From positions 32,001 through 96,000 of the IMG/VR virus record IMGVR_UViG_3300009068_000024: DNA of 64,000 nt; one strand, 5' to 3'. The stretch is from a virus. Below the pieces are notes generated by a model, which saw only the letters and a list, made by a program, of their open reading frames with translations, was not told the DNA's origin and did not search any database. A program made the position numbers and the translations under genes. Below are positions 3,580 to 21,447 of the stretch, piece by piece; position 1 is the first letter of the stretch; each line of letters begins with the position of its first letter.

Positions 3580-3762
3580 ACAAACTTCGGTGAGTTTATG
3601 CTTTCTCTCACCGAGAACGGATAGTCATTTCCCCTCTGCTATCCGTTCAGGGACTAGGTAATTTTTTGGTGGTTCTCTTTCTTACCTAGTCCCTCACTAA
3701 ACTTGACAAAACTTGACACAGGGGTATAGGCTAAACAAACCGAAACCGAAAAGGAAAATGAA

Positions 3763-4047
3763 ATGCTATTTAGACAAGCTCTCGGACACATAATCGCTGA
3801 CCACCGATACGACAACAAGCTCACACTACGCCAAGTAGTAAATAGAGGATCAGGGCGTATCTCACTTACTTACCTATGGGAGATAGAGAAAGCTCGCAAA
3901 GAAGTCAGTAGTGAAATGCTTATAGAAGTTGCTCAATGTTTAGCTATCGAGCCTAGTGATCTAGTAATCAAAATCGGTATGGTTATGTGTGGTGGAGTTC
4001 CAAACTACTTGCCGAAAGAACTTGACGAACAGCTTGTAAATCTATAA
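3763..4047 (+). CDS. XRE-family HTH regulator, ClgR-like
   Basis: LTLRQV...ISLTYLWEIEKARKEVSSEML resembles actinobacterial ClgR (TLRQV..SLGYLSEVERGQKEASSE); own promoter and RBS. Confidence 0.7.
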   Translation: MLFRQALGHIIADHRYDNKLTLRQVVNRGSGRISLTYLWEIEKARKEVSSEMLIEVAQCLAIEPSDLVIKIGMVMCGGVPNYLPKELDEQLVNL

Positions 4048-4078
4048 ACTGAACTTATCCAACTGAAAGGAAATCAAA

Positions 4079-4498
4079 ATGGATAACAGAACTGAACCAC
4101 AGGCAACAGAAATGAAAATGTCTAACACTTGCTCTTGCGAGGTCGAGGACGAAACAACAGGCGAAATGACTTGGAGTGAGGAGTGTTTCGGTTGTTTTGA
4201 TGATGATAAGCAATACTTCACAGACGAGTTCCTAATGCCATACCTGACCAGTAAAGGTTGGGACGAGGACACGATCATCAGAGTTGTTGGCGAGAAAATG
4301 AATTGGGACAACACGAGTGGTTGGACAGAAGTTCCTGCTAAGGACTTACTAAAAGCTCTTGCCATAAATGGCGAATACACACTAAGCGTTGAGATTACGC
4401 CTGAAAAGGAAATGGTAATTACCCGATCAAGCCACGATGAATACGGAGCTAGTTTTAGATTTGAGTTATCACCTGAACAGGACTATAATCCTGAATAG
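4079..4498 (+). CDS. hypothetical protein
   Basis: ORF with RBS gaaagga. Confidence 0.7.
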   Translation: MDNRTEPQATEMKMSNTCSCEVEDETTGEMTWSEECFGCFDDDKQYFTDEFLMPYLTSKGWDEDTIIRVVGEKMNWDNTSGWTEVPAKDLLKALAINGEYTLSVEITPEKEMVITRSSHDEYGASFRFELSPEQDYNPE

Positions 4499-4499
4499 G

Positions 4500-4830
4500 A
4501 TAACTAAATAAACTTTCATTAGGCATACCGAAACCTAAACCTAGAAGTCTTAGTTTTAGGTGGAGAACCAGAGGTGTTCGTAGAACCGATGTTGGTGGTA
4601 TGGGGATTACTACCCTGAAAACCTAGTGAAATCCGACCAATGTATGTCGCTAAACTACGCTTGTTCCTTAGCAAGAGAAAAAACTAAGGGTCTTGACTTC
4701 CAGACCTAAACTATAAGCCCTATTGGAGTTGATGGTAAGAACTATCCGGTTTTCTTTTTTTGTATTTTATTCTCTCTCCCTAAAAGAAAAAAATGCTAAA
4801 CCTGAGTAAGTTGATAAACTGCTCACCTAA
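4500..4830 (+). ncRNA. candidate structured non-coding RNA
   Basis: About 330 nt with no ORF in the track, several hairpins, possible gaagtc/gacttc long-range pairing, and two pseudoknot-motif copies. Confidence 0.35.
4799..4825 (+). ncRNA. H-type pseudoknot motif, copy 1
   Basis: AAC/GTT and TGAGT/GCTCA stems. Confidence 0.6.
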
Positions 4831-4850
4831 CTTCTTAGAAAAGGAAATCT

Positions 4851-5150
4851 ATGAAATACGATCTATACGCAAATGAGGACAACAACTTTATCCCTGATGT
4901 AGTCATTACAAAAGTTGAGGGAGCTTGGCTAGAAAATGCTGGCAGACAGATTTGGTTTGAGTGGCGAGAAACTGAACAATGGTGTCAAATGGAAATTGAC
5001 GAGGGCTTTTGGCTAATCACCAACATAAAATACACACCGGATTTTGAGGAATGGCTTGACGAAAACCTAGACCAATACGACAGCTTAGAGTTTATGTTTG
5101 ACCTAAATGACCTAGTGCCGAACCACTACAAGATAGAGCTTGATAAGTGA
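4851..5150 (+). CDS. hypothetical protein
   Basis: ORF with RBS aaagga. Confidence 0.7.
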   Translation: MKYDLYANEDNNFIPDVVITKVEGAWLENAGRQIWFEWRETEQWCQMEIDEGFWLITNIKYTPDFEEWLDENLDQYDSLEFMFDLNDLVPNHYKIELDK

Positions 5151-5290
5151 TCAATTGCGAAACCTGTAAGGGCAGACCCCTAGTTTGTAAAATGTATGCT
5201 CACGCTAATCGGTGGTATTACTTCTGGTGGTGGCGTGGAGTTGATAGCTTGTTTTGGAAAATCCATCAAAAACTTTGTAAAGAAATTTGA
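5147..5290 (+). CDS. small hypothetical protein (CxxC, Trp-rich)
   Basis: GTGA start/stop overlap with the previous gene, 47 codons, read by hand. Confidence 0.45.
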   Translation: MINCETCKGRPLVCKMYAHANRWYYFWWWRGVDSLFWKIHQKLCKEI

Positions 5291-5347
5291 TTTATTCTTG
5301 GTTATCTGCTAATTTGGAAACATAACCCGAATGAAAGGAAAACAAAA

Positions 5348-5863
5348 ATGGGTATGGATGTTTATGGAAAAAATCCAAAAAGCGAAAAGGGAACTTACTT
5401 CCGTAGAAATGTATGGGGTTGGAGACCACTATGGGACTATTGCGTAGATAGATACGAGGACTTAGTTGGTGATGTTTCAGGACACTACAACGATGGTGAT
5501 GGCTTAGACGATACAGGTTCATTAGAACTAGCTAAAAGAATAAAAGCCGATCTAGCAGACGGAACAGCAAAAACTTACATAACAGCAAGGAACATTCACC
5601 TTTCTATCTTGCCGAGAGAAACTTGCGAACTCTGTAAAGAAACAGGTATTAGAACCGATAAGGTTGGCGTGGAAAATGGTATGCCTGAACAAAAGCTAGA
5701 ACCCGAAATGGCTATTTTGCTAGGTAGAGAACAGGGTTGGTGTAATGGCTGTAATGGCGAGGGCAAGAAAGATAGTTGGGAAACTAACTACGATTTGGAG
5801 CTTGATGACATAAAAGAGTTTGCCGAGTTTCTAGCCGATAGTGGTGGATTTGAAATTTGCTAG
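5348..5863 (+). CDS. hypothetical protein with DnaJ-type CxxCxxxG Zn motifs
   Basis: MGMDVYG...YFRRNVWGWRPLW, CELCKETG and CNGCNGEG. Confidence 0.75.
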   Translation: MGMDVYGKNPKSEKGTYFRRNVWGWRPLWDYCVDRYEDLVGDVSGHYNDGDGLDDTGSLELAKRIKADLADGTAKTYITARNIHLSILPRETCELCKETGIRTDKVGVENGMPEQKLEPEMAILLGREQGWCNGCNGEGKKDSWETNYDLELDDIKEFAEFLADSGGFEIC

Positions 5864-5900
5864 TGAAACCACTACACTAAGACCATAGGCTTACGCCTGA

Positions 5901-5928
5901 ACACCTAAGCAAGTGTCTAAACTGCTTA
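5901..5928 (+). ncRNA. H-type pseudoknot motif, copy 2
   Basis: ACAC/GTGT and TAAGC/GCTTA stems. Confidence 0.65.
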
Positions 5929-5955
5929 CCAAAACAACAACCAATTAGGAGCAAA

Positions 5956-6363
5956 ATGGAACAAAAAATAAGTGTTGCTGGATTAGTAGCAACAACACCA
6001 AGACACCTAGTAACAGCAGACGGACTAGACATTGTTAGTTTCCGTCTAGCGTCTAGCAGTAGAACTTATGACCGAGCAAAAGGTAGATGGGTTGATGGAA
6101 ATACAAATTGGTTCACTATCACAGGGTTCAAAAGTTTAGCAACTACCACAAGTGCGAGTGTTGGCAAAGGCGATAGAGTTATCGTCATTGGAAGTGTCAG
6201 AGTTAGAGATTGGGATAATGGCGATAGAGCAGGAACTAGCGTTGAAATTGAAGCTGACGCCATTGGACACGATCTAAATTGGGGAACGAGTAAGTTTGAG
6301 AGAACTATTCCTAGCAGACTAGACCCTGAACCAGACCGAGAAGATTTGACCCTAGAAGTTTAG
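5956..6363 (+). CDS. ssb: single-stranded DNA-binding protein (actinobacterial type)
   Basis: SFRLASSSR...WVDGNTNWFTI...KGDRVIVIG...VEIEADAIGHDL, OB-fold SSB motifs. Confidence 0.9.
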   Translation: MEQKISVAGLVATTPRHLVTADGLDIVSFRLASSSRTYDRAKGRWVDGNTNWFTITGFKSLATTTSASVGKGDRVIVIGSVRVRDWDNGDRAGTSVEIEADAIGHDLNWGTSKFERTIPSRLDPEPDREDLTLEV

Positions 6364-6477
6364 GGACAGAAAAGAATTCGCCAAACTAAAAACTTGGCGA
6401 ATTTTTTTTGCCGACACGCTTGACTTACCGATACCGATAAGGAACAATAGAACTATCCCGAAACTAAGGAGAAAAAA

Positions 6478-6861
6478 ATGGGAGAACAAAAGCAAGCCCT
6501 AGTTATCAAGACAGCAGGGGACATTGAGGTTGTGAGCTTTACTGCCGAAACCGAATACGAAGTTATCAAGGAAGTCGTTGGCGGTTATTTAGAGATCGTT
6601 AGATTATCGCCAACTATGACTATGTGGATAAACGAGGAAGGCAAATTAGACAAACTGCCTTACAACCACAGAGCAACTGCTATTTGGAACTTTTATTTTG
6701 GAGCTACGGACATAATCGCTGGTAATGTAATCATCACCGGTGGAACTGATACTAACGGAAACTGCTTAGGACTAAGCTTGGCAGACGGAAACAAAATTCA
6801 GGTTTTAGTATCGGCTACTAGACTAGAAAAAGCCGAGATGAAAAAAGGGGAAACCAAGTGA
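6478..6861 (+). CDS. DUF3846-like protein
   Basis: VVGGYLE...INEEGKL..LPYNHRAT...DIIAGNVIITG. Confidence 0.75.
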   Translation: MGEQKQALVIKTAGDIEVVSFTAETEYEVIKEVVGGYLEIVRLSPTMTMWINEEGKLDKLPYNHRATAIWNFYFGATDIIAGNVIITGGTDTNGNCLGLSLADGNKIQVLVSATRLEKAEMKKGETK

Positions 6862-7127
6862 AAGTGGATTACGAAGTATCAAGAATAGCGATCTGGAAAG
6901 TAGAGAACGCTAAGACAAAGTTAGAACTTACCTATTCTGCCGAGTATGGAGCAGAGATAAAAGCAAGCTTGACTTACCGAACACTAGGGGGAGAGTGGAT
7001 AAAAACTATCAGGTATTACAACCGAGCCGAGTGTCTAATGGATTTCGCTACCCTAACCAATAATAAAAAACTGATCAGGGTAATAGAGAGAACAGAGCAG
7101 TATCAAAGCTATTTAGAGAATAGTTAG
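6858..7127 (+). CDS. hypothetical protein
   Basis: GTGA overlap with the upstream gene. Confidence 0.65.
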   Translation: MKVDYEVSRIAIWKVENAKTKLELTYSAEYGAEIKASLTYRTLGGEWIKTIRYYNRAECLMDFATLTNNKKLIRVIERTEQYQSYLENS

Positions 7128-7240
7128 ACACGCCAAAAAATAAATGAAAATAAACTTGACTTAGATTAGACAAAAGACTAAGTTAGAAGTATTGGAAGTT
7201 CCAATAGCCAAAATCGGCACAGAACTAAGGAAGTAAATAA

Positions 7241-7552
7241 ATGGAAAATCAAGAACCACAAGAACCACAAGAAGTAAAAATCACAAGCAAGAAAGCAAAA
7301 GAAGCTTACGCTTTACTAAAAGCCATAAAGGAACAAATGGCAGACTTGGAAAAGCAGAAAGCACAGGCTAACGAAATCTTGGCACAGGCTCTAAATGGTG
7401 CCAAGCGTGGAGTTGTTGCTGGACAGGGATCGTTTATTATGGCAAGTGGTAAAAACACTAGTTTTGACCGAACCCTGATGAAAGAGAAGTTTCCGTTGGC
7501 GTTCCAAGAGTGCCTAAGAACTACGGAATACGAATACATCAAGCTTGTCTAA
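7241..7552 (+). CDS. hypothetical coiled-coil phage protein
   Basis: Own promoter (TTGACT 7156, TAAGTT 7179), RBS and downstream hairpin. Confidence 0.7.
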   Translation: MENQEPQEPQEVKITSKKAKEAYALLKAIKEQMADLEKQKAQANEILAQALNGAKRGVVAGQGSFIMASGKNTSFDRTLMKEKFPLAFQECLRTTEYEYIKLV

Positions 7553-7663
7553 CAAGAAGTAGTTATCCCCTAATAAACCACACCGAGAGTTTGGATTAGG
7601 GGATTTACTTTTTACCGAGAGAAGTGGTAATGTAGAGATACCACCGAAAATGAAAGTAGAAAA

Positions 7664-7846
7664 ATGACCAAGTATGTAAAACACCTAAACAATGATGAAC
7701 TACTACAACGCCTAGCAGACGAGTTAGTTCAGGCACACAAGGAAACAGGCATAGACCTAGGCTATTGGGAAACAGCCAGAGAAGTTGTAGAACGCTTTTA
7801 CAGCGTGGAAGTAAAACTAACTATCAGGAAAGCAAAGAAAAAATGA
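7664..7846 (+). CDS. hypothetical protein
   Basis: ORF following a promoter-like region. Confidence 0.6.
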   Translation: MTKYVKHLNNDELLQRLADELVQAHKETGIDLGYWETAREVVERFYSVEVKLTIRKAKKK

Positions 7847-8106
7847 CCGAACAGGAAAAGCCGAAAGGCGATTTTAGTGATCCAAAAAGTTTCTATTTCA
7901 ATGACTACCTAAGCAACCACATAGGACACAAGCTTGAAGTTGTTGAGTATTGTTGTGGAGTGTGTGGAAAGACCACCGACTTTATGCTCCGTTGTTTCCA
8001 AGATGACATAGATGATACTTGTTTCAACGACCCTGCCGGTATTGCTAGGGAATGGGTGAAACCACATTGCGAGTGTAATCACAGCCCTTGGACAAAAAAT
8101 GACTAA
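7843..8106 (+). CDS. Cys-rich hypothetical protein
   Basis: ATGA overlap places the start at 7843. Confidence 0.6.
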   Translation: MTEQEKPKGDFSDPKSFYFNDYLSNHIGHKLEVVEYCCGVCGKTTDFMLRCFQDDIDDTCFNDPAGIAREWVKPHCECNHSPWTKND

Positions 8107-8275
8107 GTGTAAGTGTTGTAATGGCGAAAATGTATTCACTTGCGAGAGTTGTGGAAACGGATTAGCAAGTGAAAGAAAAGCTTTTACCGATAGTTCAGGG
8201 ATAGAGTTTGACCCGACTACCGAACACGCTATTTATGTTTGTGTAGATTGTAAAAAAGAACTTGACAAAAAATAA
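8099..8275 (+). CDS. small Zn-finger protein
   Basis: MTKCKCC...CESC...CVDC, read by hand. Confidence 0.55.
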   Translation: MTKCKCCNGENVFTCESCGNGLASERKAFTDSSGIEFDPTTEHAIYVCVDCKKELDKK

Positions 8276-8322
8276 TCAAGTTTAGTAAAGTGGAACTACC
8301 ACCGAAAAACAAGGAGTAAAAA

Positions 8323-8562
8323 GTGGAACTAAATGAAACCGAACAAAAGACCATAAAGCGTATTTATGATTTCTACGCTACTAAGGAAATCAACGCTGAT
8401 GAAGCTTTACAAAAGTTAGAAATGCTGATCAACGAAAATGAAATCTGTCAGGGTTGTCTTGCCGAGATAGACGAGAATAATCCACTCATAGACGCTGAAC
8501 GCTATGCTGTAAGCGACAAAATCGGTTATTGCGATAATTGCTATGACCCGACACCAGACTAA
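8323..8562 (+). CDS. small Zn-finger protein, paralog of 13315-13521
   Basis: Shared NPLIDAERY...GYCxNCYDPTP; RBS aaggag. Confidence 0.7.
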   Translation: MELNETEQKTIKRIYDFYATKEINADEALQKLEMLINENEICQGCLAEIDENNPLIDAERYAVSDKIGYCDNCYDPTPD

Positions 8563-8637
8563 AAACAAGCTTGGCAGTTAGTCCCCCCTAACACTACTGC
8601 CAACGAGCAAGGGTTTTTCTCATTTCTCCCTTGCTCC

Positions 8638-8665
8638 ACACCTAAGCAAGTGTATAAAAGGCTTA
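8638..8665 (+). ncRNA. H-type pseudoknot motif, copy 3
   Basis: ACAC/GTGT and TAAGC/GCTTA stems. Confidence 0.65.
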
Positions 8666-8773
8666 TTTTTATTTAGGGAACACACCGAGAAATAATCTTG
8701 ACTAATCTTAGGCAGTTGTGGTTAGATTAGTTAGCACCAAAAAAAATAAACCACCGAAAAAGGAGAAACAAAA

Positions 8774-9133
8774 ATGGGCGATAGAGCAACTATCCACATC
8801 ACAAGCCAGAGCTTTAGTTCACCGATAGAACTTTATGGGCATTGGTCAGGAACAGATAACGCCAAAGCAGTTGCCAAGGTATTAGAGAGAACCGACAGAA
8901 TTGGAGATGCCAATTATCTAACAGCACAGGTATTCTATGAATACGCTGTAATTCTAGGTGGTTATACAGGACACCTAAGTTTTGGCATTAGAGCAACTAA
9001 CGCTGAACCTAGCGACACTTGGGACGATAATCCGGTCGTTATCCTAAATGCCGATACAGGTTCAGTTGAGTATGACGGACAGACTTACACAGCTAATCAG
9101 TTTGCGTTAGCGTATGCCGATAAGGTAAGTTAG
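8774..9133 (+). CDS. conserved phage hypothetical protein
   Basis: MGDRA...LYGHWSG type N-terminus; RBS aggag. Confidence 0.75.
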   Translation: MGDRATIHITSQSFSSPIELYGHWSGTDNAKAVAKVLERTDRIGDANYLTAQVFYEYAVILGGYTGHLSFGIRATNAEPSDTWDDNPVVILNADTGSVEYDGQTYTANQFALAYADKVS

Positions 9134-9199
9134 AACTACACCGATAAGGGTGGTAATCCATAAGGGTTATCACCTTTATCACTAACAAGGGAAAGAAAA

Positions 9200-9448
9200 A
9201 TGGACGAGCAATTAGAACAACTAAAAGAAAAATTACTAGATCTAAAATCTAGACGAGCAGGGTTGTTATCTTTATTGGAAGGTATTACCGAGCAAGTAAA
9301 AACAACACCAAATAAAGACCTAGCGTTTCTAGACAACTTGCTAGCACAGCTAGAACAGGCAACAATAAAATCTAATCAACTAGGCGAGATAATTGCCGAA
9401 ACTAGATTAGAAATTGCTAAGTTTAGAAAAGAGTTTGGCTTAGACTAG
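9200..9448 (+). CDS. coiled-coil hypothetical protein
   Basis: Leu heptads, RBS. Confidence 0.65.
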   Translation: MDEQLEQLKEKLLDLKSRRAGLLSLLEGITEQVKTTPNKDLAFLDNLLAQLEQATIKSNQLGEIIAETRLEIAKFRKEFGLD

Positions 9449-9491
9449 CCAAGCTGGTAAAGTTAGAACACAACCAAAAGAGGAGAACCAA

Positions 9492-9782
9492 ATGAAAACA
9501 CTTGCCGAATTCAAAAGAGTATTGGCTCAACCAGACACCACACTAACTATCATCAAATACCTAAACACCAAAACAGGTGCCGAGATGAACCACAAGTTTC
9601 TAAATCAGGTTAGAACTATCGGGAAACTACAAACCAATAGCGTTGCCCTGAAAGACAAGGCAGGGAAACTATCGTGGTTAGATCTTGATAAAGCTAGTAA
9701 GTGGAGTTTCACCGAGAACATAGCAACTTTCGCTGATGAGTATGTAATTCTGGTTTATCGGGTTGAGAAACACGCTGAATAA
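9492..9782 (+). CDS. hypothetical protein
   Basis: RBS gaggag. Confidence 0.7.
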   Translation: MKTLAEFKRVLAQPDTTLTIIKYLNTKTGAEMNHKFLNQVRTIGKLQTNSVALKDKAGKLSWLDLDKASKWSFTENIATFADEYVILVYRVEKHAE

Positions 9783-9784
9783 GC

Positions 9785-9840
9785 TTGACTATTCCCGAAT
9801 AGGTTTAGTAAAGTTGAGAGTAGTTAGGTAATCGCCTAAC
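9785..9840 (+). promoter_or_regulatory. sigma-A-like promoter plus conserved 5' hairpin (cassette header)
   Basis: TTGACT-N18-TAAAGT followed by AGTTAGGTAATCGCCTAAC. Confidence 0.8.
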
Positions 9841-9863
9841 CTAAATGAGAGTAAGGAACTCAA

Positions 9864-10337
9864 ATGAACATAACACTTATCGCAGTAATGCCATTGGTTT
9901 ATCTGGCTGTTGTTGCTATCCCCCTAATCACCATAGACATTAGAGAACACCGACTACCGAACAAAATTGTTCTCCCTTTTGTTGCTATGGGTCTGGTTAC
10001 CGACATTGGTGCTAGTTTCGCTGGTGGAGAGTGGTGGAGATTAGGACTAGCTCTGGCAGTTGCGTTCGGTATCGGTATCTTAGGTATGTTTGCTAACTAC
10101 TTTGACTTTATCGGTATGGGGGACATCAAACTATTCTTTGGTAGTTCCCTAGTAATCGGCTGGTTCGTCTGGTGGTTGCCGTTGGTATTGGTAATCGCAA
10201 CGCTCATTACCGGTAGTATCGCAATTTTCTATCAGGTATTTATTCGTAAGGCTAATGCTGGAACTAGCGTTCCACTAGGACCTTATGCCATTGTTCTAGC
10301 CCTAATCATTGGAACTTACGGAGTTATGAGTATCTAG
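9864..10337 (+). CDS. prepilin peptidase (A24 family)
   Basis: DIREHRLPN, GMGDIKL and VPLGP motifs; several TM segments. Confidence 0.85.
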   Translation: MNITLIAVMPLVYLAVVAIPLITIDIREHRLPNKIVLPFVAMGLVTDIGASFAGGEWWRLGLALAVAFGIGILGMFANYFDFIGMGDIKLFFGSSLVIGWFVWWLPLVLVIATLITGSIAIFYQVFIRKANAGTSVPLGPYAIVLALIIGTYGVMSI

Positions 10338-10446
10338 GGAAGTAAGCCGAACCCCTTAGCCTAAATGGTTAGGGGGTTTAGCTTTACCCGAAAAAAGACG
10401 ATCTGGTGAAACTTGCGACACGCCAAAAAATAAATAATCTAAATAC

Positions 10447-10502
10447 TTGACTATTTCCATACGGAGAGAGTAATCTGGAAGTAGTTAGGCAAACGACCTA
10501 AC
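10447..10502 (+). promoter_or_regulatory. promoter plus 5' hairpin
   Basis: TTGACT-N18-TAATCT, then AGTTAGGCAAACGACCTAAC; GACACGCC upstream. Confidence 0.8.
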
Positions 10503-10519
10503 AGAATACGGAGATAAAA

Positions 10520-10729
10520 ATGAGTGGATACGACATTGGTGGTGGCTATGATGGCTGGAAACTATCTACCCCTTGGGATAACGAGCGAGAGATTAGCGTT
10601 AGCTTTGAGTGTGCCGAGTGTGAAGTTGAGAATGAAACCGAAGTTGTCGTTGGTGGCAGGTCGGGAGATGTTGATGTTGAGTGTGCCGAGTGTGGCAAGA
10701 ACAACAGCGTCAGTTTTGGTGATGACTAA
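10520..10729 (+). CDS. small Zn-ribbon protein
   Basis: Two ECAEC motifs; RBS ggag. Confidence 0.7.
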   Translation: MSGYDIGGGYDGWKLSTPWDNEREISVSFECAECEVENETEVVVGGRSGDVDVECAECGKNNSVSFGDD

Positions 10730-10867
10730 ATGGACGAGTTTATCAGAACTACAACAGGACAGATAGCACTTTGCCCTAAATGCGAAACAGAACTAGATGT
10801 ATTCTGTGTTTGCGCAAACAGCAACCCTATTGCTTGCGATAACTGCTGTGGATGTGAACAGCACTAA
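10730..10867 (+). CDS. small Cys-rich protein
   Basis: Abuts the previous stop; CPKC...CVC...CDNCCGC. Confidence 0.5.
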   Translation: MDEFIRTTTGQIALCPKCETELDVFCVCANSNPIACDNCCGCEQH

Positions 10868-10876
10868 CTAGCAACA

Positions 10877-10904
10877 ACACCCGAGCAAGTGTCTAAAAGG
10901 CTCA
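10877..10904 (+). ncRNA. H-type pseudoknot motif, copy 4
   Basis: ACAC/GTGT and GAGC/GCTC stems. Confidence 0.6.
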
Positions 10905-10928
10905 ACCTAAATCTTTGGAAAGGCAAAA

Positions 10929-11105
10929 GTGAAAGATAGAAAATCTAAGATCGCTTGTTGGTCTTGTGGCAAACTCACCGAAGTAAAATACATTGGTGAA
11001 AACACACATAAACAAGAGTGCCAAGAGTGTAAAAATTGGCGAGCTGAACGCTATGCTGTATTGTGTAAGAACACCGAAAAAGAAAGATCTAAAAATGCTA
11101 AATAA
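10929..11105 (+). CDS. small Zn-finger protein
   Basis: RBS ggaaagg, GTG start, CWSC...CQEC, read by hand. Confidence 0.55.
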   Translation: MKDRKSKIACWSCGKLTEVKYIGENTHKQECQECKNWRAERYAVLCKNTEKERSKNAK

Positions 11106-11223
11106 AGTTGCGAGATTACTTAGGGGAATTAGTAAAGTGCTAATGACCACAGGACACCGACTTAGTTGGTATGCGAACAAGCTTGACAGCACAGCAAGAA
11201 AAATTAGAAACGCTAGAAAATAA
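11095..11223 (+). CDS. small basic protein
   Basis: ATG overlapping the end of the previous gene. Confidence 0.4.
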   Translation: MLNKVARLLRGISKVLMTTGHRLSWYANKLDSTARKIRNARK

Positions 11224-11285
11224 ACTTGACAAAGTTTCCATACAGCAACTAAACTAAATACATCAAGACGAAAAGAGGTGAGAAA

Positions 11286-11513
11286 ATGGGAAAAAAAGTT
11301 GATACTTGGACTTGGTTTGTTGCTCGCTATGAGCAACAGGGATACAAATCTCTAAACCAATTCGCTATCGCAACAGGCTTACAAAAGTCTAGCCTTAGCC
11401 GATACTTTCATAATCAACGACACATTCCGTCAAATACTTTGGCTGTGTTGTGTCGTGAGCTGGAAGTTTCTCCAACTGAACTACTGATCGCAATTGGCGA
11501 GAAAGTAAAGTAA
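11286..11513 (+). CDS. XRE-family HTH DNA-binding protein
   Basis: SLNQFAIATGLQKSSLSRYF...LCRELEVSPTELL. Confidence 0.85.
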   Translation: MGKKVDTWTWFVARYEQQGYKSLNQFAIATGLQKSSLSRYFHNQRHIPSNTLAVLCRELEVSPTELLIAIGEKVK

Positions 11514-11518
11514 GTGCC

Positions 11519-11546
11519 GAACCTGAGCAAGTTCTAAAAAGGCTCA
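11519..11546 (+). ncRNA. H-type pseudoknot motif, copy 5
   Basis: GAAC/GTTC and TGAGC/GCTCA stems. Confidence 0.65.
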
Positions 11547-11579
11547 ACTAAAAAACTAATAGAAAGTTGCTGTGAAGTT

Positions 11580-11771
11580 ATGAAAACATTTTTGTTGTTG
11601 CTAGGTCTATGGTCTGCTGGTTGCGGTGTTTATTGGGGGATTATAGTTGAGCATAATCACCGAGCATTAGAAATAGGTCTTAGTCTGGCGTTCCTGATAC
11701 TATTTGTTGATACACTATTAGCAGTTGCCGAGCTTCCTAGATTTATTGGAAAGCGTAATAGGCGTAAATAG
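11580..11771 (+). CDS. small two-TM membrane protein
   Basis: Two hydrophobic segments and a basic tail. Confidence 0.6.
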   Translation: MKTFLLLLGLWSAGCGVYWGIIVEHNHRALEIGLSLAFLILFVDTLLAVAELPRFIGKRNRRK

Positions 11772-11810
11772 ACTTGGTAGAGGGTTTCTTTCATTTCCCC
11801 TCTGCCGAAC

Positions 11811-11838
11811 ACACCTGAACAAGTGTCTAAAAGGTTCA
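11811..11838 (+). ncRNA. H-type pseudoknot motif, copy 6
   Basis: ACAC/GTGT and TGAAC/GTTCA stems. Confidence 0.65.
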
Positions 11839-11918
11839 TTTATTTTTTAGAGATCGGGAATTTTTTATGCCGATTAGAAGTTATTATTTATGTAATGACT
11901 AACTACAAAGGAGACAAA

Positions 11919-12077
11919 ATGAAAAGAACTAAATTCACACCAGAACGAGTTGTTGAGCTGGACAGACTAGACAGACTTAGAACCTATGACTTACTTTATA
12001 GGGCTATGTTTGCCGGTCTAATCCCCTTTGAGCCGAACCTAAGACTAAAGCGTATGGTCAGGGTAAAGAAGTCTTAG
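11919..12077 (+). CDS. hypothetical protein
   Basis: RBS aaggag places the start at 11919. Confidence 0.6.
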   Translation: MKRTKFTPERVVELDRLDRLRTYDLLYRAMFAGLIPFEPNLRLKRMVRVKKS

Positions 12078-12116
12078 AGAGATTTCTAGAGATCCAAAAA
12101 ATAAATGCCGACACGC

Positions 12117-12172
12117 TTGCTTATTTCCATTTGGAAATGCTAAAGTTGTATTAGTTAGGTAAATCGCCTAAC
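12117..12172 (+). promoter_or_regulatory. promoter plus 5' hairpin
   Basis: GACACGC-TTGCTT-N18-TAAAGT, then AGTTAGGTAAATCGCCTAAC. Confidence 0.75.
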
Positions 12173-12188
12173 AGATACGGAGATAAAA

Positions 12189-12377
12189 ATGAAAAAAGCA
12201 TTAGACAACATTGGGCTTGATAAAGAAAACTTTGAGAGCAACCTTGATGATGGAATTACGATCACCGATAATCAGTGGGAAAAAATTGCCGGTGAGATAG
12301 ATGGCAGAGTTGAGAACTTTGTTTTGGAACTGCTAAACATTTTGGCAGCCGAAGTCCAAGAAGGAAATTGGGACTAA
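12189..12377 (+). CDS. small acidic hypothetical protein
   Basis: Cassette header and RBS ggag. Confidence 0.7.
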   Translation: MKKALDNIGLDKENFESNLDDGITITDNQWEKIAGEIDGRVENFVLELLNILAAEVQEGNWD

Positions 12378-12395
12378 AAATAAATTGCGACACGC

Positions 12396-12451
12396 TTGAT
12401 TATTTCCATACGGAGATGCTAAAGTTGGAGTAGTTAGGTAAGTTGCCTAGC
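12396..12451 (+). promoter_or_regulatory. promoter plus 5' hairpin
   Basis: GACACGC-TTGATT-N18-TAAAGT, then AGTTAGGTAAGTTGCCTAGC. Confidence 0.75.
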
Positions 12452-12466
12452 AGTTACGGAGTAAAA

Positions 12467-12745
12467 ATGAGCAAGCAAGATTACAAGGTATTCTGGTGGA
12501 TACAGATTTATCCATACGGATACGAAAAGGACAGCGAACTTAGAAACATTGAGTTCTCTGGTGTTATTAGTGCCGATAATGAAGATGATGCTATGGATCA
12601 GGTTAGGGAAGATAACGACATTATTGGTGATGATTTCATTGGCTATCCTGAACCTGACTACATTGATAGTCACCCCGACATTGAGATAGTTTGGACAGAG
12701 GATATGTCTGCCGAGCCTGTGTTGGACTTGACTAAAGACGAGTAA
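12467..12745 (+). CDS. highly acidic hypothetical protein
   Basis: RBS ggag places the start at 12467; D/E-rich. Confidence 0.7.
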   Translation: MSKQDYKVFWWIQIYPYGYEKDSELRNIEFSGVISADNEDDAMDQVREDNDIIGDDFIGYPEPDYIDSHPDIEIVWTEDMSAEPVLDLTKDE

Positions 12746-12814
12746 GCCCTGCGAGTAGAAAGCCCTTAGCCGAAACGCTAGGGGTTTTTTACTGCTGAAC
12801 ACGCCTAGATAATC

Positions 12815-12869
12815 TTGACTAAATGCCGATAAGTGATCTAGGATTTTAGTAGTTAGGTAATCGCCTAAT
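12815..12869 (+). promoter_or_regulatory. promoter plus 5' hairpin
   Basis: TTGACT-N18-TAGGAT, then AGTTAGGTAATCGCCTAAT. Confidence 0.75.
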
Positions 12870-12890
12870 AAAAATAAAGAAAGTAGAAAA

Positions 12891-13169
12891 ATGAAACTAC
12901 AAGCAACCAAGTCAAGTCCAGTCTGGCAAAAGATTATTGCCGATAATAAAGAGTGGTTTTCTAAATCAACACTGGAGTTTTTCAAATCAACTATTTTTTG
13001 GTCAAGCCTGAAAGAAACTGAACAGGGTCTAAAGTTTGTAACTAGCGAGTGGGATTACCAGCAGGAGACTAAGGTATTCACCATTAGGTTAGTTACCGAT
13101 AGGGGCATAGAAACTATCAGTCTATACGGAGAGTATTCCAGCCTTATAGAAGCCTTACGAGCCTTATAG
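12891..13169 (+). CDS. conserved phage hypothetical protein
   Basis: WFSKSTLEFFKS...FVTSE...FTIR motif; cassette context. Confidence 0.7.
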   Translation: MKLQATKSSPVWQKIIADNKEWFSKSTLEFFKSTIFWSSLKETEQGLKFVTSEWDYQQETKVFTIRLVTDRGIETISLYGEYSSLIEALRAL

Positions 13170-13251
13170 AGATCGTAAAACTGAACCCTTGCCGAAGCTC
13201 AGGCAGGGGTTTAGTTCTATCTAGACACGCCAAAATAAATTAGTTAGATAC

Positions 13252-13310
13252 TTGACGGAATAAAATTGGTGGTGGTAGAGTTTTATTATTAGTTAGGTAA
13301 GTTGCCTAAC
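13252..13310 (+). promoter_or_regulatory. promoter plus 5' hairpin
   Basis: TTGACG-N18-TAGAGT, then AGTTAGGTAAGTTGCCTAAC. Confidence 0.75.
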
Positions 13311-13314
13311 GGAA

Positions 13315-13521
13315 ATGAGAAAAATGGAAAACTTTCTAGACATCAACAAGGTTGCTAAAATTGTTGGACTGCCAGCAACACAGGAAACTTGCCCAGGCTG
13401 TTCCGAACTTATTACGGACACTAATCCCCTAATTGACGCTGAACGCTACACCGTAAATTCTTACACTGGTTATTGTGAGAACTGCTACGACCCAACCCCT
13501 TACTATCCCAAGATAGATTAG
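13315..13521 (+). CDS. small Zn-finger protein, paralog of 8323-8562
   Basis: CPGC...NPLIDAERY...CENCYDPTP; start may be at 13324. Confidence 0.7.
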   Translation: MRKMENFLDINKVAKIVGLPATQETCPGCSELITDTNPLIDAERYTVNSYTGYCENCYDPTPYYPKID

Positions 13522-13581
13522 GGGGGGGGGGATAATCCAGATCTGGTTTATCAACACGCCAAAACTAAATAAAGAAAATGT

Positions 13582-13638
13582 TTGACTATTCCCAGCTGGA
13601 ACCGATAAGATTTTATTAGTTAGGAAAAATCACCTAGC
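13582..13638 (+). promoter_or_regulatory. promoter plus 5' hairpin
   Basis: TTGACT-N18-TAAGAT, then AGTTAGGAAAAATCACCTAGC. Confidence 0.75.
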
Positions 13639-13652
13639 GGAAATGAGAAAAA

Positions 13653-13832
13653 ATGTTTTACTTACAGACAACATCAACCCTAGTAAGACTTTCTAATGGA
13701 GAAACTTTTACTCAATGCGAAATCTGCGGTAGATGTTATGAGAACGAACACTGGGACAGAACCAAGATAACCAGGACTGACTGGGCTTGGACTTGCGACC
13801 ACAGCGACCAGGACACCGGAATACTAGATTAG
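13653..13832 (+). CDS. small Zn-binding hypothetical protein
   Basis: 59 aa read by hand after the cassette header; CEIC...CDH. Confidence 0.6.
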   Translation: MFYLQTTSTLVRLSNGETFTQCEICGRCYENEHWDRTKITRTDWAWTCDHSDQDTGILD

Positions 13833-13962
13833 CCTGGTTGCCGATAAGTCCCCTGGTAGAGATACCGGGGGATTTATCTTTACCAGGTGCGACCTGGTGC
13901 CAGGATCTAAAATCCAGGGACAAGCTTGCCAGGATAAATTATTAGACACGCCAGGAAAAGAT

Positions 13963-14019
13963 TTGACTATTCCCAGGTGGAACTGGTAGATTTTTATTAG
14001 CCAGGTAAAACCCCCTGGC
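13963..14019 (+). promoter_or_regulatory. promoter plus covariant 5' hairpin
   Basis: TTGACT-N18-TAGATT, then AGCCAGGTAAAACCCCCTGGC. Confidence 0.75.
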
Positions 14020-14031
14020 AGAAAGAAAAAA

Positions 14032-14379
14032 ATGAACCAGGAACAAATTGAATTGTTTGGAATGATAGCTGATGACGCCGGTATGTCTATTGACTACTGG
14101 GCAGACACAGCGCACCACGACACAGAAAAGCACACTTACCAGATTACTTTATTACCGGACTGCGTTGATGAAACTGCCGGTGTTGTGAGCAAAACAATTT
14201 CTTACCAGGATTTACTAGACGCTACCAGGAAGCTAGCAACCGGTGAAGTAAGCGTGAACCCGGCCACCAAGTCAGTTTGCCAGGCTATCATTAGCGACCC
14301 GGCAGACGTTGATTATGACGCTACTGATACCGATGTTATTGTCCAGGTTGCGATGTTTGGTGAAATCGTATTCGGCTAG
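14032..14379 (+). CDS. conserved actinophage hypothetical protein
   Basis: IDYWA...DYDATDTDVIVQVAMFGEIVFG C-terminus. Confidence 0.75.
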   Translation: MNQEQIELFGMIADDAGMSIDYWADTAHHDTEKHTYQITLLPDCVDETAGVVSKTISYQDLLDATRKLATGEVSVNPATKSVCQAIISDPADVDYDATDTDVIVQVAMFGEIVFG

Positions 14380-14630
14380 ACAGCTAAGAGATGTCCCCCT
14401 GGTGAGAGCCGGGGGGGGGGGGATTATTTCTATTCTGGCCAGGACTGCCAGGGCGAGCTAGCCAGGAGCCAGGAGCCAGGAGCTAGATACGGATAATAAA
14501 CCAGGAACCAGGATCTAAATAATTAACCAGGTCAAGCCGGACACACTAGGTTTAGATTAAAGCCGGTTAGGTTAGTTATTATATGCTTAGATTATTAAGC
14601 AACTTTATTTAGTTATACGGAAGGTATAAA

Positions 14631-14852
14631 ATGAAAAAATTTATTACAAGAGCTGCAATTGCTTTACTACTAGCTATTGCCGGAATTCTTTCAACACAGA
14701 TATCCAGGCTTTATCTAGAGCAATATGTTTTCTTTGATGACAATGCCGAAACCCTGGCTATGTACGCCAGGTGGCAAGTTGGTACCTGGATTTTTGCCAG
14801 CCTATCTTTGATCTCCCTGGCCTGGGCTATTGTTTCTACCAGGAAAGATTAG
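14631..14852 (+). CDS. small membrane protein
   Basis: Two hydrophobic segments; RBS ggaagg. Confidence 0.65.
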   Translation: MKKFITRAAIALLLAIAGILSTQISRLYLEQYVFFDDNAETLAMYARWQVGTWIFASLSLISLAWAIVSTRKD

Positions 14853-14975
14853 CCTGGAGTACCTGGTTTAATGCGGTAGATTATATAAATCTAAGTTACT
14901 CCCCTGGGGCGTGTTCGCCCTGGGGGATTACCTCTATTCGGTATAAGGTAAAATGTATTGAGATTGGAGTGTGCT

Positions 14976-17251: not shown

Positions 17252-18649
17252 ATGGCTAAAAGTATCATGGAGCAGATCGCAATGCTTCCACCTGAAGAAC
17301 AGGCTAAAGTGCTATCCGGTATGGATGCAGACTCACTCATGTGGGACTGGTCAGTCTGGGGTAGGCCAGAGCAGCAAGCACCTGAAGGTGACTGGAACAT
17401 CTGGGCTTATATAGCCGGTCGTGGTGCTGGTAAGACTAGAACTGCTGCTGAGTGGGTTCGTGAAGAAGCTAAGTACACAACTACAGGGCAGAGACGCTTT
17501 GCTCTGGTTGCTCGTACTGCAGCTGACGTACGTGACGTTATCGTTGAAGGTGAGTCTGGCATTATGAATGTCACTCCACCTAGCGAGAGGCCATTGTATG
17601 AGCCATCTAAGCGAAGACTAACTTGGCCTAATGGCAATACGGCTACTTGTTTCACTGCTGATGAACCTGACTCACTTCGTGGTCCTCAGTTTACTCATTC
17701 CTGGGGTGACGAGATTGCAGCCTGGAGACAGACTCCTGATGCTGCAGGTATGACTGCCTTTGACAACCTTCGTGTTGGTACTCGTCTTGGATCTAATCCT
17801 AAGATCATGGTCACTACTACACCTAAGCGTGTACCTTTGCTTTATAAGCTTATCGAAGAAGCTAAGACCGGTCGTGTTGTGATTACTCGTGGTTCTACTC
17901 TTGACAATTCAGGTAACCTATCCGGTGCTTATCTTGATGCTATTACAGGAGTCTATGCGGGTACTCGTTTAGCTCAGCAGGAAATCTATGGAGAGATGCT
18001 TGACGATGTCGAAGGTGCACTTTGGACTTCTGAAGTTATTGATCTAGGTAGACAGTCCGGTATGCCTCTTGGAACTCCACTTAGAGTTATTGGAGTAGAC
18101 CCTAGCGTTGCTGAGAATCCTAGAGATGAATGCGGCATTGTTGTATGTGCCTCTACTTCTGAAAGAGATCTTTATAAGCGTCAGGCTTGGGTGCTTGAGG
18201 ACGCTAGCGTTCTTGGCTCTCCAACTGTTTGGGCTGAGAAAGTCGTTGAGATGGCTCGTAAGTGGGGCTGCCCTGTTGTTGCTGAGGTAAACCAAGGTGG
18301 AGCATTAGTGAAGAATGCTATTCACACTATCGACCCGAACATTGTAGTTCTTGAGGTTCATAGTAAATACGGTAAGGCTCTTCGAGCTGAGCCTGTTACT
18401 CTTGCCTACGAGCAAGGTCGTGTCCATCACGTTGGCTTCTTGGCAGACTTAGAGTCTCAAATGTATTCTTGGATTCCAGGCGAAGGCAAGTCGCCAGACA
18501 GAGTTGACGCATTGGTCCATGCTATGACTGCTCTACTTATCAAACCTCCTTCAGGCTTTACAGGTGGAAAGATTACTGCCCGTTCTATGGGAAGCCGAAA
18601 GATAGACACAGGCAGCAAGACTAGCCGATCAATCTTTAGGCTTAGATAA
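17252..18649 (+). CDS. terL: terminase large subunit
   Basis: Walker A AGRGAGKT, LRGPQF, GDE, VTTTP, RNase H-like IGVDPS, SPDRVDA. Confidence 0.95.
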   Translation: MAKSIMEQIAMLPPEEQAKVLSGMDADSLMWDWSVWGRPEQQAPEGDWNIWAYIAGRGAGKTRTAAEWVREEAKYTTTGQRRFALVARTAADVRDVIVEGESGIMNVTPPSERPLYEPSKRRLTWPNGNTATCFTADEPDSLRGPQFTHSWGDEIAAWRQTPDAAGMTAFDNLRVGTRLGSNPKIMVTTTPKRVPLLYKLIEEAKTGRVVITRGSTLDNSGNLSGAYLDAITGVYAGTRLAQQEIYGEMLDDVEGALWTSEVIDLGRQSGMPLGTPLRVIGVDPSVAENPRDECGIVVCASTSERDLYKRQAWVLEDASVLGSPTVWAEKVVEMARKWGCPVVAEVNQGGALVKNAIHTIDPNIVVLEVHSKYGKALRAEPVTLAYEQGRVHHVGFLADLESQMYSWIPGEGKSPDRVDALVHAMTALLIKPPSGFTGGKITARSMGSRKIDTGSKTSRSIFRLR

Positions 18650-18995: not shown

Positions 18996-19196
18996 TTTTT
19001 AGTCCTTATCATTTATTTAGTTAGGCACTTTACCTAACTAAGTCCAGACTAATCTAATGCGGTGAGCCTGTCAAGCGTGTTTCATAACATTTAGATAACA
19101 ACCTAGAATTTGGATCTCGCAACTAAGGCAGGGCAGGGCAGGGCAGGGTAAAGAATAACCCCCCTATTGCTAGGGGGGCTATCTATTTATTTAGAC

Positions 19197-19415
19197 TTAT
19201 CTAAGTCCTAAGCGTTCCTCTGCCTGAGCCTCTAAATAGGAAACTTCCTCAGCATCATTAGTCCCCTGAGCATTACCAAATAGTTCCCAAGTAAAGAGTT
19301 CATTGGTTAGTTCCTGAGTTGCCTTGATAATTTCCTGAGCCTTCTCCCAACTATGAACTTCATAGACAGGGGCAACGCCATCAGCAGTAGTAATTGTTAG
19401 TGAATAGATTTTCAT
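19197..19415 (-). CDS. hypothetical protein
   Basis: RBS aaagga; promoter TTGACT-N17-TAAGTT and hairpin at 19441-19496. Confidence 0.7.
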   Translation of the reverse strand: MKIYSLTITTADGVAPVYEVHSWEKAQEIIKATQELTNELFTWELFGNAQGTNDAEEVSYLEAQAEERLGLR

Positions 19416-19560
19416 TTTTATTCCTTTTCATTTTTGGATAGTTAGGCAACTTACCTAACTACTTACTAACTTAGTCCCTATAAGGCAATAAGTCAAGTTT
19501 ATTTGATAACAATTTGATAACAGAAGCTAGCCGCCAATACCGAACCTAATGCCGAACTAA

Positions 19561-19630
19561 CTAGGCAGGGCTAGGCAGAACAGGGCTAGGCAGAACAGGG
19601 CTAGGCAGAACAGGGCTAGGCTCACAGGGT
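19561..19630. repeat. tandem repeat (CAGGGCTAGGCAGAA)x3
   Basis: Read directly from the sequence. Confidence 0.85.
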
Positions 19631-19677
19631 AAAGAATAAACCCTGCCTATTACTAGGCAGGGCTTAGACTTAGTTCC

Positions 19678-19866
19678 CTAGCGTGTCTTAGGGAATTCCT
19701 GAGTTTCCCTAGCCTGAGCCTCACACTGCTCACAGGCTAACTGCTTAGGCTCAGGGTCTAAATAATCTTCCCATAAGATAGCCTTAGCAAGGTTGGCACA
19801 GCCAAGAGTGTCGCAAGTCTTGACTTGGTTGTTGAATGAGTAGATATTTATTTGACTGATAAACAT
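19678..19866 (-). CDS. small Zn-finger protein
   Basis: RBS gaaagg; CDTLGC...CEQC; cassette header at 19891-19945. Confidence 0.6.
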   Translation of the reverse strand: MFISQINIYSFNNQVKTCDTLGCANLAKAILWEDYLDPEPKQLACEQCEAQARETQEFPKTR

Positions 19867-20086
19867 TTGGAGCCTTTCATTTTTTTGGACATTAGGCAAT
19901 TACCTAACTACTATCAACATTAGGGCTATGCGGTTAGTAAGTCAAGTTTATTTGATAACAATTTAGTAAAGCTATTCGATCCAAACTGCCGAACCTAATG
20001 CCGAATTAGACAGGCTTAGGCAGATAGGCACAGGCTCAGGCTCAGGCTTAGACAGGGTTAGGCTCAGGCTCACAGGCTAAACAGGG

Positions 20087-20176
20087 TTAGGGCTTATGCG
20101 GTTAGGGCTTATGCGGTTAGGGCTTATGCGGTTAGGGCTTATGCGGTTAGGGCTTATGCGGTTAGGGCTTATGCGG
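20087..20176. repeat. perfect tandem repeat (TTAGGGCTTATGCGG)x6, flanked by CAGGCT/CAGGCA hexamer arrays (about 20010-20316)
   Basis: Read directly from the sequence. Confidence 0.9.
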
Positions 20177-20215
20177 ACAGGCTCAGGCTCAGGCTTAGAC
20201 AGGCTCAGGCTTAGA

Positions 20216-20247
<32 letters not shown>

Positions 20248-20377
20248 CAGGCACAGGCTCACAGGCACAGGCTCACAGGCACAGGCTCAGGCACAGGCAC
20301 AGGCTCAGGCTCACAGGGTAAAACTAAACCCTGCCTATTGCTAGACAGGGTTTAGGCTTGTTGGTTAGGCTTGTTGC

Positions 20378-20762: not shown

Positions 20763-20810
20763 TCGAACACTTGTTCGAAATTCGATACAAACTTTCGAAC
20801 ACTTGTTCGA
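20763..20810. promoter_or_regulatory. two LexA (SOS) box-like palindromes TCGAACACTTGTTCGA
   Basis: Copies at 20763-20778 and 20795-20810 match the actinobacterial TCGAAC-N4-GTTCGA consensus. Confidence 0.75.
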
Positions 20811-20940: not shown

Positions 20941-21447
20941 ATGACTAGACGTTTAGCAAGAGATCTTCCTCTCCCCCAATCCGAAGTCGACCTCCTCAAC
21001 AAACTGGACCGACGTCGACTACTTTCCAGAGTCCACCAGCTCTATCACGCCGGCTGGACTCTTTCGGCTATTGGGAATGCCTTCACGCCCCCAAAGGGTC
21101 GCTCGACCATCAAGGCTTGGGTTGATCAGAACGACACGTTCAACCAGATCGACGTCCCCATTCCAAATCCTACTCACAAGACCCCTAAAAACGGTTACCA
21201 ACGTCTGACTCCCGTTTCTCCCGGAGTTCCTCCGATCACCGCTGAGCAGCTACGCCAACTAGCCCCCGTTGCCCAACAGTATCGAGCCCGTACTCCAAGC
21301 GGATCTAAACCTGCTATTGCAAACGCCCTTATGAACCAGATCATCCGCGATCTACGTTCCATCGACGTCTCTATTGCCGACATTGCTCGTGCAGCTGGAG
21401 TTACTCACCGTGCAATCGCAAAACGAGTTTCTAAGCTAGGATTGTGA
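20941..21447 (+). CDS. double HTH DNA-binding protein
   Basis: GWTLSAIGNAF...RSTIKAW and VSIADIARAAGVTHRAI. Confidence 0.75.
   Translation: MTRRLARDLPLPQSEVDLLNKLDRRRLLSRVHQLYHAGWTLSAIGNAFTPPKGRSTIKAWVDQNDTFNQIDVPIPNPTHKTPKNGYQRLTPVSPGVPPITAEQLRQLAPVAQQYRARTPSGSKPAIANALMNQIIRDLRSIDVSIADIARAAGVTHRAIAKRVSKLGL

Follow-up and report, generated by a model that had tools for sequence, protein, structure and literature searches.

A 64-kb stretch of DNA from an uncultured lake phage, referred to here as the window (genome positions 32,001–96,000 of a 137,503-bp IMG/VR phage record), contains an island in which the pentamer CCWGG occurs 38 times in 1,153 bp, or 33 per kb, an enrichment of ~19-fold over expectation. 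CCWGG is the target word of Dcm and EcoRII. The core of the island occupies 13771–14923 (positions are those of the window unless given as genome positions) and lies at the downstream edge of an early-gene block that is poor in short palindromes. The density of sites is kept by selection though individual sites turn over, and sister clades carry arrays of other words at the same border. Our tentative reading, which leads the several that we have weighed, is that the island is a high-capacity target array for a CCWGG-reading protein of the restriction/methylation class, serving as a gate or sink where the block ends.

By pattern search the window has 104 CCWGG, 39 of them at 13393–14923 and 65 in the remaining 62.4 kb. 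The original prediction, made from this sequence by eye, had claimed about 39 sites in about 1.55 kb where 1–3 would be expected, a single site in the preceding 13 kb, and dense packing of coding and non-coding DNA alike. All of this stands. Base composition predicts 2.1 sites at 13390–14925 against the 39 observed, and the counts are well above the genome background; the only CCWGG in the preceding 13 kb is at 3266; and the sites at 13393–14923 divide into 24 in ~555 bp of non-coding DNA and 15 in ~960 bp of coding DNA, the island being ~60% coding. Only the span, previously drawn from 13390 to 14925, needs adjustment. Its first site, a CCAGG at 13393–13397 inside ORF A (13315–13521), is an isolated outlier. 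Because this site is 378 bp from the next one and ORF A is not enriched in CCWGG (one observed, 0.9 expected), we place the island proper at 13771–14923, where the dense packing is found.

The concentration is equally plain on the scale of the whole genome. The 137,503 bp hold 193 CCWGG, and elsewhere in the genome the word occurs 153 times, at the expected frequency. The next-densest 2.5-kb bin of the genome has 12 sites, the best 1-kb interval outside the island is far lower, and the Poisson P of the island against the rest of the genome is ~3e-37. The island is slightly richer in G+C than the window (44.8% vs 42.6%). Ahead of the window, at genome 25602–27330, 12 CCWGG in 1.7 kb form a minor cluster.

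An assembly artefact, which the original prediction had named as a possible refutation, is ruled out by contigs of other sequencing runs and by six related loci that carry the island. The comparison of runs (designated X2, X3 and X8) is based on Logan contigs, with depths taken as per-contig means. Four contig pieces from X2, which belongs to a different study, span the island with zero differences, and X3 and X8 contain diverged strains in which the island is present. For the comparison of relatives, 80 related loci were collected from IMG/VR through the large terminase subunit, and a separate set of 17 was collected through ORF C, one of the genes in the island; related loci bear L-numbers and whole records G-numbers, G000 being the record that contains the window. 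Six of the 80 terminase loci (L002, L003, L005, L006, L007 and L008), with terminases 92–98% identical, have 20–43 CCWGG per 1.5 kb at the same place, and the other 74 have at most 11 per 1.5 kb. From the ORF C set, the eight loci at least 82% identical (L083–L090) were examined; as L089 and L090 are one and the same DNA, the counts cover seven of them, which have 24–35 CCWGG per kb. Farther afield, a nucleotide search of GenBank phages with the island gave no match. The closest named relative, the lake phage DSL-LC01 of Actinomycetia (57% G+C), lacks an island over the 21 kb that comprise its terminase and the DNA upstream, where there are at most seven sites per 1.5 kb. A literature survey covering titles and abstract openings returned no description of a restriction-word island in a phage.

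Selection for the word and layout of the cassettes

When the 39 sites are oriented alike, all that they have in common is CCWGG itself. There is a weak purine preference at position -1 (29/39), A follows the word in 15/39 sites, and no longer motif emerges. CCAGG is used at 26 of the sites and CCTGG at 13, ORF D uses both, and the ratio of the two stays at ~2:1 across eight loci. CCSGG is much rarer, with four sites, and the one-off words CTWGG and CCWAG are at background level, 4.6 per kb in the island vs 4.7 in the rest of the window. The sites show no helical phasing (best period 8.0 bp, r 0.176 vs a null mean maximum of 0.178). Since CCAGG and CCTGG are both used as the codons allow, recognition should be of the duplex and symmetric between strands. 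We conclude that duplex DNA is read, that the unit of recognition is the bare pentamer, and that the number of sites matters and their geometry does not.

Selection for number is visible at the level of codons. Each gene was subjected to 5,000 synonymous resamplings using the codon usage of the phage itself. ORF C has five CCWGG of the six that its protein sequence permits, vs 0.7 expected, and ORF D has seven of a possible ten, vs 0.4–0.6 expected; these numbers were reached in 0/5000 resamplings for either gene. ORF B has two, where at most five are possible from the protein sequence, with a P of 0.03–0.08. Comparison of ORF C with its CCWGG-free homologue in L010 puts four of its five sites at conserved Gln codons, where CAA is replaced by CAG and the adjacent codons are altered to supply the flanking C and G. 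Selection also maintains the density of sites through their turnover. L007 keeps 17 of 21 window sites (81%) while the aligned 5-mer identity is 31%, and it has a further 12 that the window lacks. Among five aligned relatives there are 41 site columns, of which 11 are common to all five and 17 are private to one.

The island core extends over three small self-contained gene cassettes, all on the + strand, and the spacers that go with them. ORF B (13653–13832, +) encodes a Cys-rich protein of 59 aa, with a CxxC pattern that appears zinc-ribbon-like on our own reading. The spacer between it and ORF C (13833–14031, +) has 11 CCWGG and contains a terminator hairpin, scattered sites, a promoter-like sequence (TTGACT-18-TAGATT, 13963–13992) and a leader hairpin; promoter-like sites are found ahead of ORFs A, B and C. 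ORF C (14032–14379, +) encodes an acidic protein of 115 aa with a pI of 4.05. It is followed by a spacer (14380–14630, +) with nine CCWGG, a terminator with a 12-G run, tandem arrays and an ATACGG motif. ORF D (14631–14852, +) encodes a hydrophobic, membrane-like protein of 73 aa rich in Leu and Trp, and the spacer after it (14853–14957, +) has four CCTGG in hairpin stems at the right end of the island. The tandem arrays are AGCCAGG repeated 3.4 times and AACCAGG repeated 2.1 times (24 and 15 bp). A simple tandem repeat or microsatellite is rejected as a description of the island, because these two short arrays account for only 5/38 sites.

The hairpins of the cassettes have been rewritten as well. 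The leader hairpin of ORF C reads AGCCAGG..CCTGGC, vs AGTTAGG..CCTAAC or CCTAGC in neighbouring cassettes, and CCWGG is also present in terminator stems, which agrees with what the original prediction had said of the cassette hairpin and terminators. The hairpin of the ORF B cassette in L007 is likewise rewritten on both arms. The L007 version of the spacer between ORFs B and C has six tandem CCAGGTT, and other relatives have their own versions. There are two G runs in this part of the window, 11 G at 13521–13531 and 12 G at 14411–14422; the second differs in length between runs, with 1 or 6 bases missing in X2, X3 and X8.

The proteins themselves give little indication of function. ORFs B, C and D match no Pfam family, and ORF B matches no PHROG family. 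ORF C matches phrog_2355, of unknown function, and none of its 32 homologues has a Pfam family or an informative name. The predicted structure of this conserved protein is confident (pLDDT 94, pTM 0.88), and searches of the PDB with the model gave no clear structural relative (best Foldseek E 0.68; best VIA Z 4.0). We considered DNA mimicry in view of the acidity of ORF C and dropped the idea; lacking any clear structural relative, the model is neutral on function.

The early block, its border and the sister clades

We take as the main clue to the island its location where a palindrome-free early block ends, a point that the original prediction did not take into account. The block runs for 16.1 kb (genome 29.6–45.8 kb), contains ~45 small rightward genes and has the island as its downstream edge; it begins 2.4 kb before the window and covers 1–13770 (+) within it. 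Over genome 30–45 kb, 4-bp palindromes are at 0.29 of expectation and 6-bp palindromes at 0.07–0.3, compared with ~0.85–1.0 elsewhere. ACGT, CATG, TGCA, GTAC and GANTC are each absent where 58 would be expected, as are GGCC and CGCG (30 expected of each) and TTAA (113 expected), and CCWGG occurs twice with 17 expected. AATT, AGCT, CTAG and GATC are tolerated. Within the island, palindromes other than CCWGG are scarce to ~14100, rise from ~14500 and reach normal density by ~15000. The layout of block and border is repeated in relatives, and in most of them the homologue of ORF C is the last gene before the palindrome-poor block ends. The left edge of the block has neither an array nor a visible terminus.

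Sister clades place other words at this border. The clade of L009, L098 and L099 has 47 GATC in 460 bp of non-coding DNA, after the terminator of the ORF C homologue and at the same border; an AGCTC array follows the GATC stretch, and then normal DNA. The L010 clade has at the same place a shorter TGATCA stretch together with AGCTC arrays. An ATACGG motif is found in the arrays of all three clades (CCWGG, L010 and L098). L091 and L092 have ORF C inside palindrome-poor DNA and no array. In these sequences the arrays track the border, if not in every lineage, and the word depends on the clade.

The avoidance of words also differs between lineages. CCWGG is purged from the early block of both phages with islands, G000 (2/17) and G003 (1/17), and is unpurged in that of the islandless G001 (37/39). 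GATC and AGCT are missing altogether from G009 (135 kb) and G013 (133 kb), where ~500 of each are expected, and G009 has no ACGT or GCGC either. The same two words, GATC and AGCT, are both absent from 33/80 terminase loci (L027–L035, L037–L046, L049, L052, L054–L059, L061, L066, L067, L069, L073 and L074). Their complete absence from relatives argues that restriction shapes this group of phages strongly. This purge is extreme and lineage-specific, and the phage of the window tolerates both words.

A methylase accompanies the array in one of the sister clades. G001, the record with the 47 GATC, is 94% complete and encodes a phage-type Dam methylase (PF05869, 117 bits). Dam was found in 3/25 related records searched, in 0/5 other records at least 90% complete and, by a separate search, not in G000. 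In L100 (G001:119866–123276), the Dam gene of G001 is flanked by genes for a Cys-rich protein of 159 aa and a protein of 82 aa. G000 has homologues of both flanking genes, and in the interval between them (L101 4050–5645, genome 23049–24644) it encodes a 161-aa protein with a DnaJ-type zinc finger that falls below the Pfam cut-off and an acidic protein of 164 aa. Neither has a methylase signature, and both were rejected as methylases at the Dam position.

Readings of the island

On the reading that we tentatively prefer, the protein that reads the array would be a host methylase or endonuclease, or an unrecognised phage protein of the same kind. Type II restriction and methylation enzymes read bare short palindromes. 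The array would sit where restriction-proof early DNA gives way to unprotected late DNA, and during early expression the reader would be retained, or its mark deposited, at the border before the late DNA is exposed. The role would be like that proposed for the repeat-rich border of T5 first-step-transfer DNA. The target array as a reading draws its main strength from the kind of word involved, from selection for the number of sites, from the surrounding landscape of avoidance, from the link between word and clade, and from the pairing of Dam with a GATC array.

Several points count against it. The main weakness is that no reader was found and that clustered cleavable sites are dangerous: 38 of them together are a liability if a host endonuclease cuts CCWGG, a sink on the same molecule brings no obvious gain, and such a cluster is hard to square with a simple decoy. 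None of PF00145, PF01555, PF02086, PF05869, PF02384 and PF07669, searched with working controls, matched in G000 or G003, and Vsr was not found in G000. The search for CCWGG methyltransferases in the phage that the original prediction proposed thus came back empty for six informative methylase families and Vsr; searches with PF05063 (MT-A70), EcoRII-C and EcoRII-N also gave no match, but their controls were blank too, so these are uninformative. The link between Dam and the GATC array comes from one near-complete genome, the two other Dam-positive records ending before the border. At its border L097 has ORF C but no palindrome array. Staged entry is deduced solely from the region-limited avoidance. 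Finally, the depth of contigs across the island shows no two-fold step in three runs (7.5 vs 6.9 in X2, 7.4 vs 6.5–7.1 in X3 and 12.7 vs 14.8 in X8, per-contig means being a weak measure), and therefore the island is probably not the end of a terminal repeat.

In gene content, G000 and G003 have 46 open frames, some of them spurious, that are not in G001, G009 or G013; among their products are an HTH_17 protein of 145 aa and small Cys-rich proteins. A 134-aa HNH endonuclease (PF01844, 30 bits; L131 3623–4027, equal to genome 12623–13027 of G000) is present in both island genomes and absent from G001, G009 and G013. Nothing links any of these clade-specific frames, the HNH endonuclease included, to CCWGG, and they were set aside as its readers.

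The original prediction had offered three functions for the island, as a decoy or sink for an enzyme that restricts or methylates DNA, as a switch dependent on methylation, or as a loading zone for a phage DNA-binding protein. The field is now narrower, without a decision among the three. The options involving restriction or methylation gain from the bare duplex palindrome, the selected number, the avoidance setting and the Dam gene of the sister clade, and lose from the lack of a methylase match in the CCWGG phages. That the island is a counter-defence device, a sacrificial or titrating array of a host restriction enzyme's word that is placed at the passage from the restriction-proof leading block to the rest of the genome and is swapped (CCWGG, GATC) as lineages meet different host systems, we regard as doubtful. 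Whatever reads it, a word that is purged from 16 kb and then rises ~19-fold in the next 1.15 kb, with codon freedom given up for its density, shows that such a word can itself be made useful. A host restriction/methylation enzyme as the reader would make the island a DNA-level device for counter-defence or timing, of a kind for which the survey of titles and abstract openings returned no description; a phage protein as the reader would make it a tractable candidate for a cis-acting border signal in staged genome entry. The phages with CCWGG islands, those with GATC arrays and Dam, and the relatives free of GATC and AGCT together make a natural experiment linking words to readers.

Of known systems, the border in T5-like phages is the one that the preferred reading most directly invokes. 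Restriction of T5-like phages is reported to act only at sites in the first-step-transfer DNA, sites elsewhere being tolerated, and the mechanism at the border of that DNA is described in the same source as still unknown (PMC10644984). The leading block ends in a 1.2–1.7-kb stretch of short repeated boxes and palindromes, the function of which a preprint gives as unproven (bioRxiv 10.1101/866236). The likeness is in an early block depleted of restriction sites (0.29 vs ~0.85–1.0 of expectation elsewhere) and closed by a 1.15-kb island. The differences are that the T5 border is non-coding and has DnaA boxes and long inverted repeats, whereas here a 5-bp word is also found within three genes, the island is ~60% coding, and none of the four TTWTNCACA matches in the window falls in it. 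In addition, contig depth does not mark the island as a repeat end, two-step entry of this phage is an inference, and the lineages are unrelated.

Other comparisons are more partial. Avoidance of restriction sites in phages is documented (PMC6286503). The same class of word, Type II palindromes, is under selection here, but at the island the sign is reversed, ~19-fold up. Clusters of methylase-target sites that act as switches are found in E. coli at oriC and the dnaA promoter, where they are read by SeqA. The parC/ParR system of plasmid R1 resembles the island in having many short sites in a row at a control point, and differs in that the sites of the island lack helical phasing and overlap genes.

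A possible but less probable alternative to the target array is a set of docking or titration sites for a sequence-specific DNA-binding protein that the phage encodes and that has no connection with restriction. This protein would control the switch from early to late expression or, in the manner of an injection-stop signal, the restart of entry, and the word would differ from clade to clade through co-evolution of the protein and its sites. The island does separate the early cassettes from the late lysis and packaging genes, density is what selection favours, and the arrays are clade-specific (CCWGG, GATC or AGCTC) with the ATACGG motif common to those of three clades. The 46 frames specific to the island genomes, with the HTH_17 protein and small Cys-rich proteins among them, offer a source for such a protein, and the proposed injection-stop region of T5, as the preprint presents it, is likewise an array of short boxes (bioRxiv 10.1101/866236). 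However, a 5-bp word without flank preference or phasing is unusually short for a dedicated regulator, the other 153 CCWGG stand in the genome at the expected frequency, and no candidate protein is linked to the word.

It is unlikely that the island serves packaging or end processing, whether as a pac site or as the inner boundary of a terminal repeat, or that it is an origin of replication; any such role might be gated by methylation, on the model of P1. The large terminase subunit is encoded only 2.3 kb downstream of the island (17252–18649, +); it is 77% identical to that of DSL-LC01 and ~62% to those of large Microbacterium phages. The precedent is the pac site of P1, described as 161 bp inside the pacA coding sequence with seven TGATCA/G Dam sites (PMC10028697). 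Like it, the island has many methylase-target words in a short stretch, within coding sequence and beside packaging genes, and the sister clades use TGATCA and GATC arrays, one with a Dam gene. Unlike it, the island has 38 CCWGG over 1.15 kb and three genes, far exceeding the needs of known pac sites, and in the CCWGG phages the six informative families gave no methylase match. A likely small-terminase-like HTH gene (20941–21447) is 6 kb distant, and none of the three runs shows a depth step across the island. As for an origin, GC skew has no turning point at the island, the E. coli-type DnaA boxes mentioned above lie outside it, and there is no AT-rich unwinding core next to ordered iterons.

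The possibility of a repeat end derives some interest from the cultured relative Microbacterium phage A3Wally (MZ150783.1; L082 and L130), which has a 15,503-bp perfect direct terminal repeat comprising small rightward genes 1–41, with genes 355–394 as its second copy. The inner end of this repeat is a non-coding stretch with CCTAGG/AGGCCT/TAGCTC-type arrays of short motifs and long G runs. The repeat of small genes resembles the early block, and the island has its own G runs at 13521 and 14411. Genes of the A3Wally repeat (endolysin-like and peptidoglycan-binding) lie outside the block in the phage of the window, and synteny with A3Wally was discarded as a guide, since it does not fix the limits of a repeat there.

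We consider a role at the level of RNA very improbable. The transcripts of the three cassettes would in that case form a sponge or structured RNA through CCAGG/CCUGG pairing or protein binding. Many sites are indeed in the stems of leader and terminator hairpins, CCAGG is in 2:1 excess on the transcribed-sense strand in 8/8 loci, and CCAGGA, formed where A follows the word (15/39 sites), includes the Shine–Dalgarno-like AGGA. The interchange of CCAGG and CCTGG as codons permit fits a duplex and not a single-strand motif, however, the flank preference is weak, and an Rfam search gave nothing at the gathering score, the best match being NsiR1 with 26 bits vs a threshold of 39.

E. coli Vsr carries out very-short-patch repair, which would fix changes such as CAA to CAG in the context C-CAA-G. 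A neutral by-product of biased mismatch repair of this type, of repeat slippage or of recent import of CCWGG-rich DNA is already disfavoured and about as improbable as the RNA role: such CAA to CAG changes are seen in that context and two short tandem arrays are present, but the one-off words CTWGG and CCWAG are not depleted, many sites take two substitutions to create and both arms of hairpins have been altered, the tandem arrays hold just 5/38 sites, 81% of sites are conserved against a 31% background of 5-mer identity, the cassette architecture is native, and no Vsr was found in the phage.

Other repeats and word clusters

Several further clusters of short words were examined in the window and its relatives. 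In the L010 locus, 30 GATC occur in ~1 kb (6435–7458) upstream of the sister-clade terminase, and CCGG is also enriched 0.7–1.7 kb upstream. Eight of the GATC lie within 90 bp of a membrane-protein gene, where they arise through Ile ATC codons after codons ending in G. We treat this enrichment as a side observation: it is partly the by-product of Asp-Pro repeats in a protein, from which the remaining GATC largely come, and partly real in the membrane-protein gene. An apparent TGCA island in L007 and L008, and ACGT clusters downstream of the terminase elsewhere, are merely places where palindrome-poor DNA ends and normal density resumes.

Clusters of AGCT, AGSCT and CTSAG after the terminase were likewise set aside as G-rich microsatellites (CAGGCT, CAGGG, AGCTC and GGGCTT) ahead of leftward cassettes. 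Such microsatellites precede the post-terminase leftward cassettes at 19100–20340 of the window and at the ends of L015, L017, L020, L024 and L025. Their units include GGCAGGG, CAGGCT, a 15-bp unit repeated six times, GGGCTT and GGTCAGG, and many related contigs end inside them. At 20763–20810 of the window, two copies of TTCGAACACTTGTTCGAA stand ahead of the HTH/portal operon, at a second border from palindrome-poor to normal DNA.

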